Of a stretch of DNA of 58,443 nucleotides, positions 440 through 12,463 are shown in pieces. The stretch's first letter is position 1. Each line of letters begins with the position of its first letter. The notes beneath the pieces were generated by a model that had not been told where the DNA came from, ran no database searches, and was given only the letters and a program-made list of their open reading frames with translations. This stretch comes from Candidatus Roizmanbacteria bacterium CG_4_10_14_0_2_um_filter_39_13 (GTDB lineage Bacteria > Patescibacteriota > Microgenomatia > UBA1406 > GWC2-37-13), in the NCBI GenBank assembly GCA_002792315.1, contig PFOB01000019.1, positions 1-58,443 of the forward strand, in the 5' to 3' direction. Made by a program: the position numbers and the translations under genes.

Positions 440-1972
440 TTATGTTTTTGAAAATACCTTTTTTTGTACTGCCTCGATGAGATCTGGTGGGTAGTTTTTT
501 GCTTCAAATCGATCAGGTTCTTCAATTCCTCTGAAAATACTCCCAGTTGAAAGAAGTCTTGGTCTCGCAGACTCCCCTCCATAAAAAATTCCTGCAACGA
601 CTGCAGATGGATTGGGTATTTCTTGGAGAAGTGATGACAAACTGTCACTTTTTCTCGGAGTTGCCAAAGCTTGGGTTGCGATAATCAATGAATTAAATTT
701 GACAAATTTTTTGATTACTTGAACTACAGATCCAGCGGTTAATCCGGTGCAAACTGCATCATCTGCAAAAATAACATTGTCAATACTGCCAAGGTTTATA
801 AGTCGATTTTTATCATCGTCATTTAGTCTTGTATCACATGTAATTTTTCCATCAATCCAGTTTCTTCGAGCATATGGCGCTATAGAATTTTGAGGAAGAA
901 TCCCGCATTTTTCTAGTTCGGCACGCATATATTTTCCTCCACCACCTGGAAATATCCACAAATTATTCTCTCCGGTATATGATGCCAAATTTCCATTTCG
1001 AACAACCCACTCCATAATTAACTTATCGTCAAAGACGATAAGTTCTGGAATTGAAGTAACTTGGTCAGTAGATACTCCATATGCACGTTCATTTATATAT
1101 ATCATGGGTTCAACTTTCCCATCACCAAATGAGACACTATCCGCCACAACTATTCCCAGACCGTATGAAAAATTATTACCGGTCAACGATTCCACTCTTT
1201 GTTGAGCATTCAATAAACCTCGAGGAATTCTATTGTCGGTACCCAGATAACCCTTGTACAGTAACTCTTTGATGATCATTCCAACCGGAATTAATTCTTC
1301 AGATTGTAAATAATTTTTTTTAGTCGATAAATCAGATGTATTCGTCTCCTCAATTATCTGAGGAATTTCGGGAGTTAACGGAGTAAAAATAACTTTTCGT
1401 TTTTTCATTGCTTCCTTTACTATTTTTTCTCCAAGTTTGTCGGTTCGAATTCCTGATTTTACTACCGGACCCCCTCCAGGAGCTCTCGCTTGAAATCTAC
1501 TATCTCGTGTAATACTTTTTGGAGATACTCCATATGTGGATGCATCACTTTGATTCATTTCTTTTGCCGGTGGCTTATCTTCCGGCCAATCAGCAATTTT
1601 GGCACACACCTTTTCACCACGTATTCGAAATTGGAGTTGATTTTCAGAGAGCATCCGAATAACTTTTTCAGGTGAAAGATTGGTCTGTCGGGATAATTCT
1701 TGGACGGTAATACATGGAAGATCAACGGTGGGATTTTGATTCGTGATCCAAGGCTGAATTCGTGTTTCAATTGCCTCTCGAATTGTCGGAACGATATCAT
1801 CACGTGTTTCATTTCGCAAGGCGTCGCTCACTTGAGCGTTATTCCACCCAGTCAAATCATATAAATCTCCTTCTCCTGAAAATTGTGCATAATCAGGAGG
1901 GAGGCCCAAATCTCTAACCGAAGATCGAAATTTTTCATAGCCCGAATTTGTTAATTGCTCTCGTGGATTCAT
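440..1972 (-). CDS. HTH (excisionase/MerR-like) plus type I phosphoribosyltransferase-domain protein, function unknown
   Basis: aa 88-128 ITVQELSRQTNLSPEKVIRMLSENQLQFRIRGEKVCAKIADW looks like an HTH_17-type helix-turn-helix. The C-terminal part carries the PRPP-binding loop VIFADDAVCTGLTAGS (aa 399-414) and a Gly-rich loop IFPGGGGKYMR. ATGA overlap with the upstream gene. Confidence 0.6.
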   Translation of the reverse strand: MNPREQLTNSGYEKFRSSVRDLGLPPDYAQFSGEGDLYDLTGWNNAQVSDALRNETRDDIVPTIREAIETRIQPWITNQNPTVDLPCITVQELSRQTNLSPEKVIRMLSENQLQFRIRGEKVCAKIADWPEDKPPAKEMNQSDASTYGVSPKSITRDSRFQARAPGGGPVVKSGIRTDKLGEKIVKEAMKKRKVIFTPLTPEIPQIIEETNTSDLSTKKNYLQSEELIPVGMIIKELLYKGYLGTDNRIPRGLLNAQQRVESLTGNNFSYGLGIVVADSVSFGDGKVEPMIYINERAYGVSTDQVTSIPELIVFDDKLIMEWVVRNGNLASYTGENNLWIFPGGGGKYMRAELEKCGILPQNSIAPYARRNWIDGKITCDTRLNDDDKNRLINLGSIDNVIFADDAVCTGLTAGSVVQVIKKFVKFNSLIIATQALATPRKSDSLSSLLQEIPNPSAVVAGIFYGGESARPRLLSTGSIFRGIEEPDRFEAKNYPPDLIEAVQKKVFSKT

Positions 1973-2880
1973 ATTTGTGTTAATGTTTGTAAAAAAGGCA
2001 TCAATGCCGATCCGGCATAACCAGGAAGTATTAGGCCGGCACGCAACTTAATTTTTTCTGAAGCATTTTCTGGAACTACCACAAGACCTCCGTTTTTGGA
2101 TATATACTGTGCGACAGGTAAGTCCATCTGTTCGTCATCACCAATAAATAATGATGTTTCTGTTGCTATTCCACACTGAGTTTGAAGTGATTGGACTCCA
2201 TGTAATTTTGTAATAATTTCATTATTTGGACTGTTTGGTCGTATCAAAACAGATCCATCTGTTCGAGTGATAGAAATATTGTTAAATAGTTTTGGATTTT
2301 CGTTTCGTAACGACTCGACAAAGTCTGCACATGCAAAGTAGTTATAATCAGTTGGACACTCACGAGCATTCCCAGAAGGCCACAAAATAACAGAGAGTTG
2401 ATTGGGGTAGTTTGAAAAAACGAACGGCATTGGTTTAAGATCTTTTTGATTTGTTGGAAAGCTTCCGAAAGCGTTTGGGTCTTTTGAATAGTCTCCAAAT
2501 GAATACTTGTCGTCCGTGTTACGGGGACCAATAGGGATAAAAGCCATTCTCAATCTTTTTCGTATCTCATCAAGGTTTTGAAGATCATTCGCGCCACAGG
2601 TGGTCTGAATTTCACCATTTACTTTTATCATCAGTCCTGCTTCGAAAATGCCGTTTGAACTTGCAAGAAGAACATCTTTGCCTGGATAGCTCTCAGCTTC
2701 CATTTCGCCGAGACTTCGTGAAGTGCATGGAATGAGCTTATACCTTTGAGCAAGTTCAGTAAAAACACCATTAAGTTCATCTGGTCCTGGATATATACAC
2801 TGATCCACGTCAATAAACAAAGTATTGACTTGTCTCAATCTTTCTTGAAGTTCACTTGAGAAGTATTGTTCGGATCTCAT
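1969..2880 (-). CDS. HAD-superfamily phosphatase (IIB/Cof-like layout)
   Basis: Motif I FIDVDQC (DxD), motif II PCTSRS, motif IV FIGDDEQMD, with a large cap region between motifs II and III. ATGA overlaps at both ends. Confidence 0.55.
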   Translation of the reverse strand: MRSEQYFSSELQERLRQVNTLFIDVDQCIYPGPDELNGVFTELAQRYKLIPCTSRSLGEMEAESYPGKDVLLASSNGIFEAGLMIKVNGEIQTTCGANDLQNLDEIRKRLRMAFIPIGPRNTDDKYSFGDYSKDPNAFGSFPTNQKDLKPMPFVFSNYPNQLSVILWPSGNARECPTDYNYFACADFVESLRNENPKLFNNISITRTDGSVLIRPNSPNNEIITKLHGVQSLQTQCGIATETSLFIGDDEQMDLPVAQYISKNGGLVVVPENASEKIKLRAGLILPGYAGSALMPFLQTLTQI

Positions 2881-3785
2881 AATGTCATTAAATCAATGAG
2901 TAATGAAAAAAATCTTTCGGAATTTACGTTGGTTACAACTTTTACATTCCCATTTGAACAAGCATTCAAGTATGTAGTTCCTATATCGTCACCTTTCAAA
3001 GAAACGTTTATCTGTCCTTGTTTTGAATCAGTTTGGATAGTTGAGTTGAATAATAAACTTGCAGCGAGAGGGTCATAGAAATAGTCAAAATCCGTAGTAT
3101 TTCCGAGTGTGATTGCCTTGATGATTTTGCCAAATATTGTATTTGGTTGTATTTCACTAATCAGCGACACAAATTCCTTACTATTTGGTACACAAGAAGT
3201 AGCATCAATTCCCACCATGATGATGGGAATTCCTGAGTTAAATACTATCTGTGCTGCTTGTGGATCGAGCCAAATATTATATTCAGCTTTCCTTGAAGGC
3301 GGTACATTTCCCTTTTTTAAACCCCCGCCCATGAGGATGATTTGATTTACATTATTTTTGAATTTTGCTCCCTGATTTTGAATAATTGATGCCAAATTTG
3401 TCAGAGGACCCAAAGCAAGAATGGTAATATTTTTCGAGATGAAACTAGCTATTGATTTGACTCCGATTTGTTTATCGTTTTTTAGTTTATTTTTAGGAAT
3501 GCCAAGGTTAGATAGAAGGGTCAAATTCTCAGCCCGTTTGCGATCTTGAATGGGAAAGGTAGTATTATTGGGTACTAACGCAGTAGTATAACCCGATAAA
3601 ATTGGAATGTTCACGCCGCAATAGGTCAAAAGAACGTTTATATTTTCATATCCTCGATTCACACTACTTACTCCATTTACGAGAGATATTCCTTTGATGC
3701 TCGTTTTATTAGATAGAAAAAGCATGGAAATTGCCATGATGTCATCATTTCCCATGTCCGTATCAATCCATAGATTTGTTTTCAT
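2877..3785 (-). CDS. inosine-uridine-preferring nucleoside hydrolase family (IUNH)
   Basis: N-terminal WIDTDMGNDD (DxDxxxDD), GPLTNLA, and MGGG..GN..AEYNIWLDPQAAQIVF blocks typical of IUNH enzymes. Confidence 0.8.
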   Translation of the reverse strand: MKTNLWIDTDMGNDDIMAISMLFLSNKTSIKGISLVNGVSSVNRGYENINVLLTYCGVNIPILSGYTTALVPNNTTFPIQDRKRAENLTLLSNLGIPKNKLKNDKQIGVKSIASFISKNITILALGPLTNLASIIQNQGAKFKNNVNQIILMGGGLKKGNVPPSRKAEYNIWLDPQAAQIVFNSGIPIIMVGIDATSCVPNSKEFVSLISEIQPNTIFGKIIKAITLGNTTDFDYFYDPLAASLLFNSTIQTDSKQGQINVSLKGDDIGTTYLNACSNGNVKVVTNVNSERFFSLLIDLMTL

Positions 3786-3819: not shown

Positions 3820-3843
3820 AAAAAACCCCGCGGTTTGCGGGGT
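3820..3843 (-). terminator. intrinsic terminator inside the 5' leader of the nucleoside-hydrolase operon (attenuator segments 3:4)
   Basis: Minus strand: CCCCGC (3842-3837), loop AAACC, GCGGGG (3831-3826), then UUUUUU (3825-3820). It lies 34 nt upstream of the ATG at 3785, not after any gene. Confidence 0.55.
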
Positions 3844-3868
3844 GCGATTATTGAGAACAATAAAAGAA

Positions 3869-3931
3869 CTACCCCGCAGGTGCGAGGTGATGATGATTTA
3901 TTTCGTTTTGCATTTCATTAATAGCTAACAT
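3869..3931 (-). CDS. putative 20-aa leader peptide MLAINEMQNEINHHHLAPAG
   Basis: ATG at 3931-3929 lies 7 nt after a -10 hexamer. Three consecutive His codons CAT CAT CAC occupy 3895-3887. The last codons and the UAG stop (3871-3869) are embedded in hairpin segments 1 and 2. Confidence 0.45.
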   Translation of the reverse strand: MLAINEMQNEINHHHLAPAG

Positions 3932-3946
3932 ATTTAATATATTAGC
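3924..3946. promoter_or_regulatory. imperfect 23-bp palindrome (candidate operator) overlapping the -10, predicted +1 and leader ATG
   Basis: GCTAACATATTTAATATATTAGC matches its reverse complement at 20 of 23 positions. TAACATATT is repeated directly at 3926-3934 and 3951-3959. Confidence 0.35.
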
Positions 3947-3967
3947 ATGTTAACATATTAAAGTCAA
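3939..3967 (-). promoter_or_regulatory. sigma70-type promoter TTGACT-N17-TAATAT for the leader/nucleoside-hydrolase operon
   Basis: Minus strand: TTGACT at 3967-3962, a 17-nt spacer, TAATAT at 3944-3939. Confidence 0.5.
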
Positions 3968-3997
3968 GGGCATTGTTTCAAACCAATAGTAATCCAA

Positions 3998-4006
3998 TGT
4001 TATAAT
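3998..4006 (+). promoter_or_regulatory. extended -10 promoter (TGtTATAAT) for the YerC-like gene
   Basis: TG at 3998-3999 and TATAAT at 4001-4006. The GTG start at 4013 is only 6 nt downstream and has no Shine-Dalgarno sequence. Confidence 0.4.
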
Positions 4007-4012
4007 AAACAT

Positions 4013-4309
4013 GTGACGACATCATATAATCCATATAAAGCAAAAAATAGTGAAGAGAAAGCTTTGGCAGAGGCTTTTGCAAAAGTTCAAACAACTCAAG
4101 AAAGTCTGAATTTGTTACGAGATCTTTTGACCCCAAAGGAGCTTGAAGAATTTGGGAGACGCTTTAAAATAGCAAAACTTCTTGAGACGACCGACATGTC
4201 TTATGAAGCAATTGCAAAGAAAATGAAAACGTCCACAACTACCGTAACTCGTGTTGCCCTTTGGCTCAATAATGGGAGTGGGGGATATAAAAAGGCTTTA
4301 GGTAAATAA
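4013..4309 (+). CDS. TrpR-like DNA-binding protein, YerC/YecD family
   Basis: 98 aa. LTPKELEEFGRRFKIAKLL ... TSTTTVTRVALWLNNGSGGYKKAL matches the YerC/YecD (Trp-repressor-like) HTH and C-terminal GSGGY block. GTG start. Confidence 0.7.
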   Translation: MTTSYNPYKAKNSEEKALAEAFAKVQTTQESLNLLRDLLTPKELEEFGRRFKIAKLLETTDMSYEAIAKKMKTSTTTVTRVALWLNNGSGGYKKALGK

Positions 4310-12437: not shown

Positions 12438-12463
12438 GACGGGGCTTTTGCCCCGTCTTTTTA
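12438..12463 (+). terminator. intrinsic terminator of pnp
   Basis: GACGGGGC-TTTT-GCCCCGTC (12438-12457) followed by TTTTT. Confidence 0.8.

Follow-up and report, generated by a model that had tools for sequence, protein, structure and literature searches.

Introduction

In enterobacteria, the operon hisGDCBHAFI is controlled by hisL (Rfam family RF00514, His_leader), a leader peptide that has seven histidine codons. Here, we describe a candidate leader of this kind in the 58,443-nucleotide (nt) contig PFOB01000019.1 of Candidatus Roizmanbacteria bacterium CG_4_10_14_0_2_um_filter_39_13, a member of the candidate phyla radiation (CPR, or Patescibacteria). We analyzed the whole contig, which we call the window. 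The leader is read on the minus strand from 3967 to 3820, and it precedes a putative nucleoside-salvage operon of three genes, which encode an inosine-uridine-type nucleoside hydrolase (IUNH), a weakly HAD-like protein, and a protein with a predicted type I phosphoribosyltransferase (PRTase) fold. From evidence that is computational throughout, we consider it likely that this leader is a histidine-specific, ribosome-mediated (leader-peptide) transcription attenuator whose promoter is probably also controlled by a HisR-type repressor.

The leader in the window resembles hisL in having consecutive histidine codons, alternative pairings among four segments (1:2, 2:3, and 3:4), and a terminator before the first gene, and in that it would sense the charging of His-tRNA via the position of the ribosome. 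It differs from hisL in having three histidine codons (instead of seven), in being probably leaderless (with the start codon at the 5' end of the mRNA) and without a Shine-Dalgarno site, and in probably being joined with a HisR-type repressor. The regulated genes differ as well: they encode the nucleoside hydrolase, the HAD-like protein, and the PRTase-fold protein (and, in relatives, hisS is included), whereas hisL controls the biosynthetic operon. We found no match to RF00514 at the gathering threshold or with E values up to 10, and the only match to a leader family was to Trp_leader (13.6 bits, E = 8.8). Therefore, we regard this leader as an analogue, and not a homologue, of the enterobacterial His_leader.

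Histidine leader peptides have also been predicted in Firmicutes, both before a hisS paralogue and hisZ in bacilli (PMC2965389) and in the B. cereus group, Peptostreptococcaceae, and Erysipelotrichales (PMC9413887). These leaders have 3-5 histidine codons before attenuator, antiterminator, and terminator hairpins, and their relatives use a histidine T-box or HisR, so that a change of sensor, including changes between T-box and leader peptide at hisS-family genes, was already known (PMC2965389, PMC9413887). As in those leaders, the histidine codons in the window stand directly before the hairpins, and the sensor has been exchanged at the corresponding genes of relatives. However, the attenuators of Firmicutes are in genomes that lack HisR and the T-box, whereas the window has a HisR-like gene and the attenuator side by side. 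The phylum and the regulated genes are also different, and there is no sequence similarity.

For Actinobacteria, leaderless leader open reading frames (ORFs) are described for ilvB, trp, and leu of C. glutamicum and for mycobacterial poly-Cys elements (bioRxiv 10.1101/834739; PMC4046766 and its reference 42). They resemble the leader in the window in that the transcript opens directly with a sensory ORF, with no ribosome-binding site ahead of it, and in that repeated codons for a single amino acid cause the ribosome to stall and the downstream RNA to refold, as would happen in the window. The mycobacterial Cys elements are described there as acting on translation (the ribosome-binding site is sequestered), whereas the leader in the window has a terminator of the intrinsic type at its end; it also differs in its amino acid and its phylum.

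Two E. coli systems are relevant because of their architecture. The trp operon combines the TrpR repressor with the trpL attenuator, which has two Trp codons, and in pheM-pheST, an aminoacyl-tRNA synthetase gene is under leader-peptide attenuation. As at trp, the window would have a TrpR-family repressor at the promoter (as suggested by motif matches) along with a leader peptide with few regulatory codons, but the amino acid is histidine instead of tryptophan and the repressor is HisR-like. As at pheST, a synthetase gene (hisS) appears to be under leader-peptide attenuation in relatives.

In full-text searches of an incomplete library, we found no report of leader peptides or T-boxes in CPR/Patescibacteria. 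An earlier interpretation of this DNA, which was made without database searches (the sequence-only reading), had held that no such attenuator was described before IUNH/HAD/PRTase genes or in lineages with reduced genomes. None has been reported, in the literature we searched, in CPR or before these genes, but the claim of novelty was overstated, as the histidine leader peptides of Firmicutes and the leaderless leader ORFs of Actinobacteria precede it. What we propose is a known mechanism in a new phylum and in a new gene context.

A histidine leader ORF with alternative hairpins

All coordinates of the leader are given in the direction of the minus strand. The promoter (3967-3939) has the -35 box TTGACT (3967-3962), a spacer of 17 nt, and an extended -10 element (TGcTAATAT, with the -10 box at 3944-3939). 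A consensus scan also reports this site, and orthologous loci have TTGACA, a spacer of 16 or 17 nt, and TAACAT or TATATT at the equivalent place. Just 7 nt past the -10 box, an ATG (3931-3929) opens an ORF of 20 codons, MLAINEMQNEINHHHLAPAG, which ends with TAG at 3871-3869 (the ORF with its stop codon spans 3931-3869). Three consecutive histidine codons, CAT CAT CAC, can be read directly at 3895-3887.

The histidine codons lead into the first of four segments. Segment 1 (ACCUCGC, 3888-3882) begins within the third histidine codon, and segment 2 (UGCGGGGU, 3878-3871), whose 3' end is overlapped by the UAG, can pair with either segment 1 or segment 3. Segment 3 (ACCCCGCA, 3843-3836) is both the 5' arm of the terminator and the antiterminator partner of segment 2. 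Segment 4 (GCGGGG, 3831-3826) runs into the U-tract (3825-3820), as seen both by direct reading and in a hairpin scan (the two together span 3831-3820). From the end of the U-tract to the ATG of the hydrolase gene (at 3785) is 34 nt. These elements of the promoter, the short ORF, the histidine codons, the segments, and the U-tract are all where the sequence-only reading had placed them.

Folding energies bear out the pairings that had been proposed, namely 1:2 with 6-7 base pairs (bp) and one G.U, 2:3 with 8 perfect bp, and 3:4 followed by the U-tract. Hairpin 1:2 (3888-3871) has 7 bp, including the G.U pair, with a loop of 4 nt and an energy of -11.1 kcal/mol. The terminator, 3:4 (3843-3825), has 7 bp, the loop AAACC, and an energy of -13.8 kcal/mol, with six U at 3825-3820. 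The competing helix pairs UGCGGGGU (3878-3871) with ACCCCGCA (3843-3836) over 8 perfect bp; its energy is -13.3 kcal/mol by itself and -20.0 kcal/mol if we include a small AU-rich hairpin (3863-3848) that constrained folds predict in its loop. Folding predicts both of the states that were expected, 2:3 on the one hand and 1:2 with 3:4 on the other.

Folding also predicts a third state that the earlier interpretation had missed. Owing to the likeness of segments 1 and 3 and of segments 2 and 4, the minimum-energy fold at equilibrium, if folding is unconstrained, is a nested structure of 1:4 and 2:3 (-31.1 kcal/mol). In this structure, segment 4 remains base-paired right beside the U-tract. Furthermore, hairpin 1:2 has a U-rich stretch after it and was scored by the scan as terminator-like in its own right.

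Terminators, histidine codons, and start sites in the window

A strict hairpin scan of the 58-kb window found only two strong intrinsic terminators between genes. One of these (12440-12455) is an ordinary 3' terminator. The other is the terminator of the leader, which in the hairpin scan lies 42 nt ahead of the gene start, while 1240 nt separate it from the end of the preceding gene on that strand. Given its position before a gene start and far from the preceding gene, it is a 5'-leader terminator. Histidine runs are also infrequent: among random ORFs of the window that start with ATG and have 10-45 codons, just 3.9% contain two adjacent histidines, and histidine accounts for 1.15% of the residues in the long proteins.

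Searches against Rfam gave no significant match for the leader and no family above threshold in the 58 kb. The best Rfam match, an Aggregatibacter sRNA (33 bits versus a threshold of 51), is merely the terminator. In 15 related loci, nothing reached the gathering threshold of Rfam, and a search with ARAGORN yielded no tRNA genes, either in the window or in the related loci.

To begin at the ATG, the transcript would have to be leaderless, as the sequence-only reading had suggested, and this agrees with the habits of the genome. Only four of the 43 genes in the window have a motif that resembles a Shine-Dalgarno site, and nine of the 43 have a -10-like hexamer 5-7 nt ahead of the start codon (versus about 0.5 per offset elsewhere). 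With few Shine-Dalgarno motifs and with -10 boxes so near to the start codons, leaderless initiation appears to be the usual mode in this genome, and the mRNA of the leader is probably leaderless as well.

The short ORF and its histidine codons are conserved

We gathered loci that encode relatives of the hydrolase. The best protein matches were from Levybacteria, Roizmanbacteria, and other Patescibacteria. These loci gave ten further distinct leaders (L001, L002, L004, L005, L007, L013, L015, L021, L024, and L026; L008 and L009 have the same sequence as L001). In all ten, which are from Microgenomates-type CPR bacteria, a short ATG-started ORF with histidine lies just upstream of the corresponding operon, and the histidine codons stand directly before a GC hairpin and a U-run terminator. 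Thus, the short ORF and its histidine codons, whose presence in orthologous leaders the initial proposal had named as a check, have been kept.

Eight of the ten further leaders have two or three adjacent histidines. The peptides end, or continue past the histidines, as ...KYFHHHLAPAG in L007, MKNNALFSSHHPRPRAG in L002, MNSMKTNKIHHLTARNGGKVYLA in L001 (and in the identical L008 and L009), ...KKVHHTPLSAE in L004, ...NKNHHHFPSLGR in L015, ...LVSHHTPILSVV in L021, and ...LSSHHAPLTCG... in L026. In L005, the peptide (...NVAHHTF) continues the reading frame of the upstream repressor gene, to whose end it is fused. The other two are L013 (...QNHNHHQ, that is, HNHH, with a different, long hairpin after it) and L024 (...LSSHQAPLLCG...), which retains a single histidine in the codons CAT CAA. 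The orthologous histidine codons are CATCATCAC, CATCAT, CACCAT, CATCAC, and CAT-AAT-CAC-CAT, and among themselves they differ only by T or C at the third position. In contrast, the 9-29 codons that precede the histidines are unrelated among loci in both sequence and length, yet the frame is always open, and the residues after the histidines are dictated by the GC-rich stems. In L007, a palindrome of 25 nt has been inserted within the leader ORF, and the frame is intact. As far as comparison of sequences can tell, this pattern would be expected if the ORF is a translated sensor, but not if it encodes a functional peptide or is an RNA motif.

A different view is that the ORF is not translated. 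The promoter would then be controlled by the HisR-like protein only, the two GC hairpins would either act constitutively, as a leaky terminator or a pair of pause sites, or be bound by an RNA-binding antiterminator protein, and the histidine codons would be an RNA motif. A HisR-like gene and an operator-like site are indeed present (see below), hairpin 1:2 is scored as terminator-like, and the case for translation of the ORF comes from sequence comparison. But CAY-CAY varies at third positions only and is always in frame with an upstream ATG, across unrelated stretches of 9-29 codons that include the insertion in L007. The stretch from the start codon to segment 1 is otherwise unconserved, which leaves no candidate site for a protein or a ligand, and there is no match to an Rfam family. 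Also, the histidine codons and the stop codon are placed relative to segments 1 and 2 as a ribosome-driven switch needs. We consider this explanation unlikely.

Several relatives show variations in how the leader ORF is arranged. At L005:590-883, the counterpart of the leader peptide (...MLKKTKQNKNVAHHTF) forms an in-frame extension of the HisR-like ORF at its C-terminus, and there, the repressor gene itself would bring the ribosome to the histidine codons. In L015, just one nucleotide separates the stop codon of the repressor gene from the ATG of the leader, which suggests translational coupling. A third form of leader is found at L013:503-678 and L019:1-75, where an ORF of 34 codons ends in ...HNHHQ-stop and runs straight into a U-run hairpin of ~70 nt, with a second hairpin after it. 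These long-hairpin leaders did not fit the four-segment model; a stalled ribosome might directly occlude their terminator.

The inserted palindrome in L007 (2843-2867) is REP-like (GTCATCCTGAACTCGATTCAGGATC and variants), and such palindromes also occupy the terminator loops of two leaders of another type, the T-box leaders of L012 and L023 (see below). A related copy is in the leader of L003 (~2773-2800), upstream of its T-box sequence.

Stems that differ between lineages remain complementary

MAFFT left the stems of the ten leaders out of register, so the leaders were analyzed singly and a table of terminators was anchored on the U-tract. In ten leaders, the start of segment 1 falls within -2 to +7 nt of the first nucleotide of the histidine codons, and the stop codon is inside segment 2 or shortly past it. 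The energies are -10.5 to -14.4 kcal/mol for 1:2, -11 to -18.4 kcal/mol for 2:3 (with 7-12 bp), and -9.6 to -12.4 kcal/mol for 3:4, which is followed by a U-run of 5-7 nt.

The stems fall into three classes (CCCCGC/GCGGGG, ACCGCC/GGCGGU, and CCUCCC/GGGAGG). In the anchored table of 11 loci, pair 4 of the terminator is C-G at seven loci, G-C at two, and U-A at two, and pair 6 is G-C at seven loci and C-G at four. Overall, two of the six stem positions show compensatory change and the loops are free to vary, although these counts are qualitative and do not represent independent events. In L027, the closest relative (90% protein identity), the stem is unchanged and the loop is different.

The antiterminator can be compared in the same way. 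For the region from the histidine codons through segment 2, pairing to segment 3 within a class has an energy of about -13 to -20 kcal/mol, as against about -6 to -11 kcal/mol between classes. Because complementarity within each class has been kept despite differing stems, the 2:3 antiterminator seems to have been maintained by co-variation. The earlier interpretation had called for a check on whether the four segments are conserved or covary, and the stems do differ between lineages and stay mutually complementary.

Could the leader have arisen by chance, or as two copies of a REP-like GC hairpin behind a spurious ORF? Hairpins 1:2 and 3:4 are near-copies, so that the 2:3 and 1:4 complementarity is automatic, and REP-like palindromes are present in related leaders. 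However, the four-segment layout is found with three different stem sequences at one genomic position in 11 loci, and the palindromes of the relatives differ from it in sequence. In the window, the strict scan found no other intergenic GC hairpin with a U-run that precedes the start of a gene in the same orientation. We view an origin as a repeat or by chance as highly improbable.

Folding with a ribosome on the leader

We computed partition functions for the RNA ending at segment 4, with a ribosome footprint of ~30 nt that was kept single-stranded. When the footprint was set at the stop codon, the terminator formed with a modelled probability of 0.90-1.0 in every leader but L001 (0.5) if it was defined over 34 nt, and of 0.97-1.0 in all ten with a tighter definition. 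With the A site on a histidine codon or on the preceding codon, the probability was at most 0.1 in most of the leaders. For the window, the corresponding values are 1.00 at the stop codon and 0.03-0.05 on the histidine codons. Without a ribosome, the terminator had a probability of 0.86-0.99 in L007, L004, and L021. These constrained folds reproduce the switch that the sequence-only reading had laid out, in which a ribosome stalled at the histidine codons masks segment 1 and favors 2:3, while a ribosome at the stop codon favors 3:4.

A HisR-like repressor and its putative operator

Divergent from the leader is a gene (4013-4309, plus strand) for a TrpR-family, YerC/HisR-like repressor of 98 amino acids (Pfam Trp_repressor, E = 1.1e-18; NCBIfam yecD_yerC, 44.9 bits versus a cutoff of 42.2). 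In B. subtilis, yerC encodes the histidine repressor HisR, whose operator has the consensus cacTTTAnnnnnnTAAAgtg (PMC9413887). A homologue of the repressor adjoins the leader in L002, L004, L005, L007, L013, L015, L021, L024, and L026.

A palindrome of 20 bp that resembles the HisR operator (3946-3965; GACTTTAATATGTTAACATG on the minus strand) covers part of the -35 box and the spacer of the leader promoter. It holds the perfect palindrome ATGTTAACAT (3947-3956). This is the sole site in the window that matches at least 11 of the 14 positions of the consensus cacTTTAnnnnnnTAAAgtg, and it matches exactly 11, a level at which 3.75 sites would be expected per 58 kb. As the number of hits is not above chance, only the location of the site is informative. 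In relatives, sites that match the consensus (ACTTTA-N6-TAAAGT) are located in the promoter regions of either the leader or the hisR-like gene, frequently in tandem at a distance of 32 nt. Tandem matches are found in L004 (2506-2557; 13 and 11 of 14), L005 (521-572; 13 and 12), and L015 (2035-2086; 12 and 12), and L021 has a single match (415-434; 12 of 14). Also, TGTTAACA is retained in the promoter spacer of L002 and L007. From these motifs, a HisR-type repressor probably adds control of the leader at the level of the promoter.

The repressor gene has a predicted promoter of its own (3977-4006, plus strand), TTCAAA and TATAAT separated by 18 nt, with a TG (10 of 12 in the consensus scan). 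Its GTG start codon is 6 nt past the TATAAT, so this gene is apparently leaderless too (4001-4015, plus strand); an ATG two bases upstream meets a TGA at once.

Sister lineages have a probable histidine T-box instead

In L003, L012, L014, and L023, a T-box leader replaces the leader ORF before the corresponding operon (L003:2619-2975, L023:2687-3000, L014:1-100, and L012:1-130, as identified by Rfam and by comparison). The Rfam scores for the T-box are 30.1 bits for L003 (E = 6e-5) and 25.2 bits for L023, as compared to a curated threshold of 93. The leaders have the conserved T-box sequence AAGGAUGGGACCGCGG with the acceptor-binding bulge UGGG. This bulge would pair with a discriminator C73, which, among bacterial tRNAs, is characteristic of tRNA-His. 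Furthermore, L003 and L023 have a short hairpin with a loop of 7 nt, GUCACGA, that presents CAC, and there are compensatory changes among the T-box helix, the 5' arm of the terminator, and the 3' arm if L003 is compared to the other T-box leaders. Judging from these features, the leaders of the sister lineages look like histidine T-boxes, within CPR, with a reduced stem I.

The leader in the window has neither a T-box sequence nor a tRNA-binding stem, according to a search with RF00230. The two kinds of leader share the physiological signal and the operon, but a T-box binds the tRNA directly, whereas the leader in the window would sense its charging via the ribosome.

The T-boxes bear on whether the attenuator responds to histidine as such or to the general speed of translation or the coupling of polymerase to ribosome. 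A general sensor could account for there being just two or three histidine codons (fewer than in hisL), for L024 having one, and for the modelled probability of the terminator in the window being lowered by any stall over most of the ORF. Nevertheless, histidine is the one codon identity that is conserved, and it is present in 11 of 11 leaders despite being 1.15% of residues. Sister lineages have a T-box of the histidine type before the corresponding operon, the adjoining gene is a homologue of a histidine repressor, and hisS is inside orthologous operons. A general sensor of translation is, to our minds, quite unlikely.

Genes of the operon and its histidine context

The first regulated gene (2877-3785, minus strand) encodes the nucleoside hydrolase (302 amino acids; Pfam IU_nuc_hydro, E = 2.5e-51). 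It has a 4-nt overlap with the second gene (1969-2880, minus strand), which encodes the weakly HAD-like protein of 303 amino acids (Pfam Hydrolase_3, E = 0.1; HAD/Cof-type proteins in a profile search of the Protein Data Bank (PDB), E of about 0.1-0.2). L002, L007, and L019 likewise have a gene for this protein after their hydrolase gene. The third gene (440-1972, minus strand) encodes the PRTase-fold protein (510 amino acids), with the predicted fold in the C-terminal half, along with the motif VIFADDAVCTGLT.

Neither the 303- nor the 510-residue protein belongs to a family in Pfam or NCBIfam, and sequence searches, including of the PDB, gave marginal signals for HAD and PRTase. For the 510-residue protein, we used an AlphaFold2 model (pLDDT of 89), for which Foldseek identified APRT, UPRT, and HGPRT at E values of about 6e-6; it is the structure model alone that settles the PRTase fold. 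This family is very rare, with just five homologues among 5.8 billion proteins. The N-terminal half of the protein is lineage-specific, with weak matches to helix-turn-helix domains at residues 73-115. In relatives, PRTase-like domains are fused to HAD or P-loop kinase-like domains.

The operons of relatives include additional genes, for histidyl-tRNA synthetase (HisRS), a hisI-like protein (PRA-CH), an EamA transporter, a CntK_N-like (histidine-racemase-like) protein, and AstE/AspA-like proteins. A neighborhood of IUNH with HAD and/or PRTase-like proteins, HisRS, and EamA is seen in L014, L015, L016, L018, L021, L023, L024, and L026, and only some of the loci with this neighborhood have PRA-CH, CntK_N, or AstE/AspA-like genes. 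Four of these eight loci have a histidine leader ORF before the neighborhood and two have a T-box; L016 and L018 are truncated before the upstream region. From its gene content, the neighborhood may be a histidine-scavenging module in CPR.

The sequence-only reading had found it unusual that the controlled genes are not genes for histidine biosynthesis. The operon is not unrelated to histidine, however, given the HisR-like neighbor, the hisS and hisI-like genes in relatives, and the histidine T-box in sister lineages.

How the leader would work

In the mechanism that we infer, transcription would begin at or beside the A of the ATG at 3931, and the mRNA would be leaderless. A 70S ribosome would load on the 5' AUG and trail the polymerase. 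Hairpin 1:2 and the U-rich stretch after it would form first and would probably pause the polymerase until the ribosome comes. If charged His-tRNA(His) is scarce, the ribosome would stall with a histidine codon (3895-3887) in its A site and with its footprint over segment 1. Segment 2, being free, would pair with segment 3 over 8 bp, which would leave segment 4 without a partner, and transcription would read through into the operon for the hydrolase, the HAD-like protein, and the PRTase-fold protein. If charged His-tRNA is plentiful, the ribosome would reach the UAG and cover segments 1 and 2, 3:4 would fold, and transcription would terminate at 3825-3820. If there is no translation, then the RNA would form either 1:2 with 3:4 or the nested 1:4 with 2:3. 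In both of these forms, segment 4 would be in a helix beside the U-tract, so termination would be the default. A HisR-type repressor would add a tier of control at the promoter, as TrpR does at the trp operon of E. coli.

Several observations weigh against this mechanism. In the window, without a ribosome, the probability of 3:4 is only 0.14 and the nested fold of 1:4 with 2:3 is favored; in the models, a default of 1:2 with 3:4 depends on folding kinetics or on 1:4 serving as the stem of the terminator. The results of the footprint model, which ignores folding kinetics, move with changes of 1-2 nt in the assumed edge of the ribosome, and with an edge at +11, a stall at the histidine codons gives only partial relief from termination in L004, L007, and L024, with the minimum one codon earlier. 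L024 has a single histidine codon, and L005 performed poorly in one of two model runs. The 11 related leaders are a small sample for covariation, and the HisR-like operator in the window matches the consensus at only 11 of 14 positions. Finally, we found no hisS in the window (using tblastn with the HisRS of a relative as the query), and there is no evident reason why the hydrolase, HAD-like, and PRTase genes should respond to histidine. Even so, comparison and modelling both support the core of the original proposal, which is that the leader is an attenuator coupled to the charging of His-tRNA.

Implications for CPR bacteria

More tentatively, and with rather more doubt than confidence, we suggest that this operon of Microgenomates-type CPR bacteria (for a nucleoside hydrolase, a HAD-type phosphatase, and a very rare PRTase-fold protein) may be an unrecognized member of the histidine regulon, with up to three interchangeable sensors: a HisR operator, a leaderless histidine leader peptide, and a T-box with a reduced stem I. 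In relatives, this part of the regulon would extend to hisS, a hisI-like cyclohydrolase gene, the gene for an EamA transporter, and histidine-racemase-like and aspartoacylase-like genes. To our knowledge, CPR bacteria are presumed not to make histidine. If the suggestion is correct, then they would have an undescribed pathway for salvage or scavenging that is linked to histidine, and they would use the coupling of transcription to translation for regulation.

The leader would be the first leader-peptide attenuator to be described in CPR, and the sister loci would have the first T-box. It would follow that, in these minimal and uncultured bacteria, transcription is coupled to translation and the charging of tRNA is monitored. 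With a repressor, a leader peptide, and a T-box that are swapped or combined at one operon, these loci would also be a case study in how such sensors evolve. And because it would mark the unannotated set of hydrolase, HAD-like, and PRTase genes as responsive to histidine, the leader would offer a concrete clue to what these genes, with hardly any homologues, might do.

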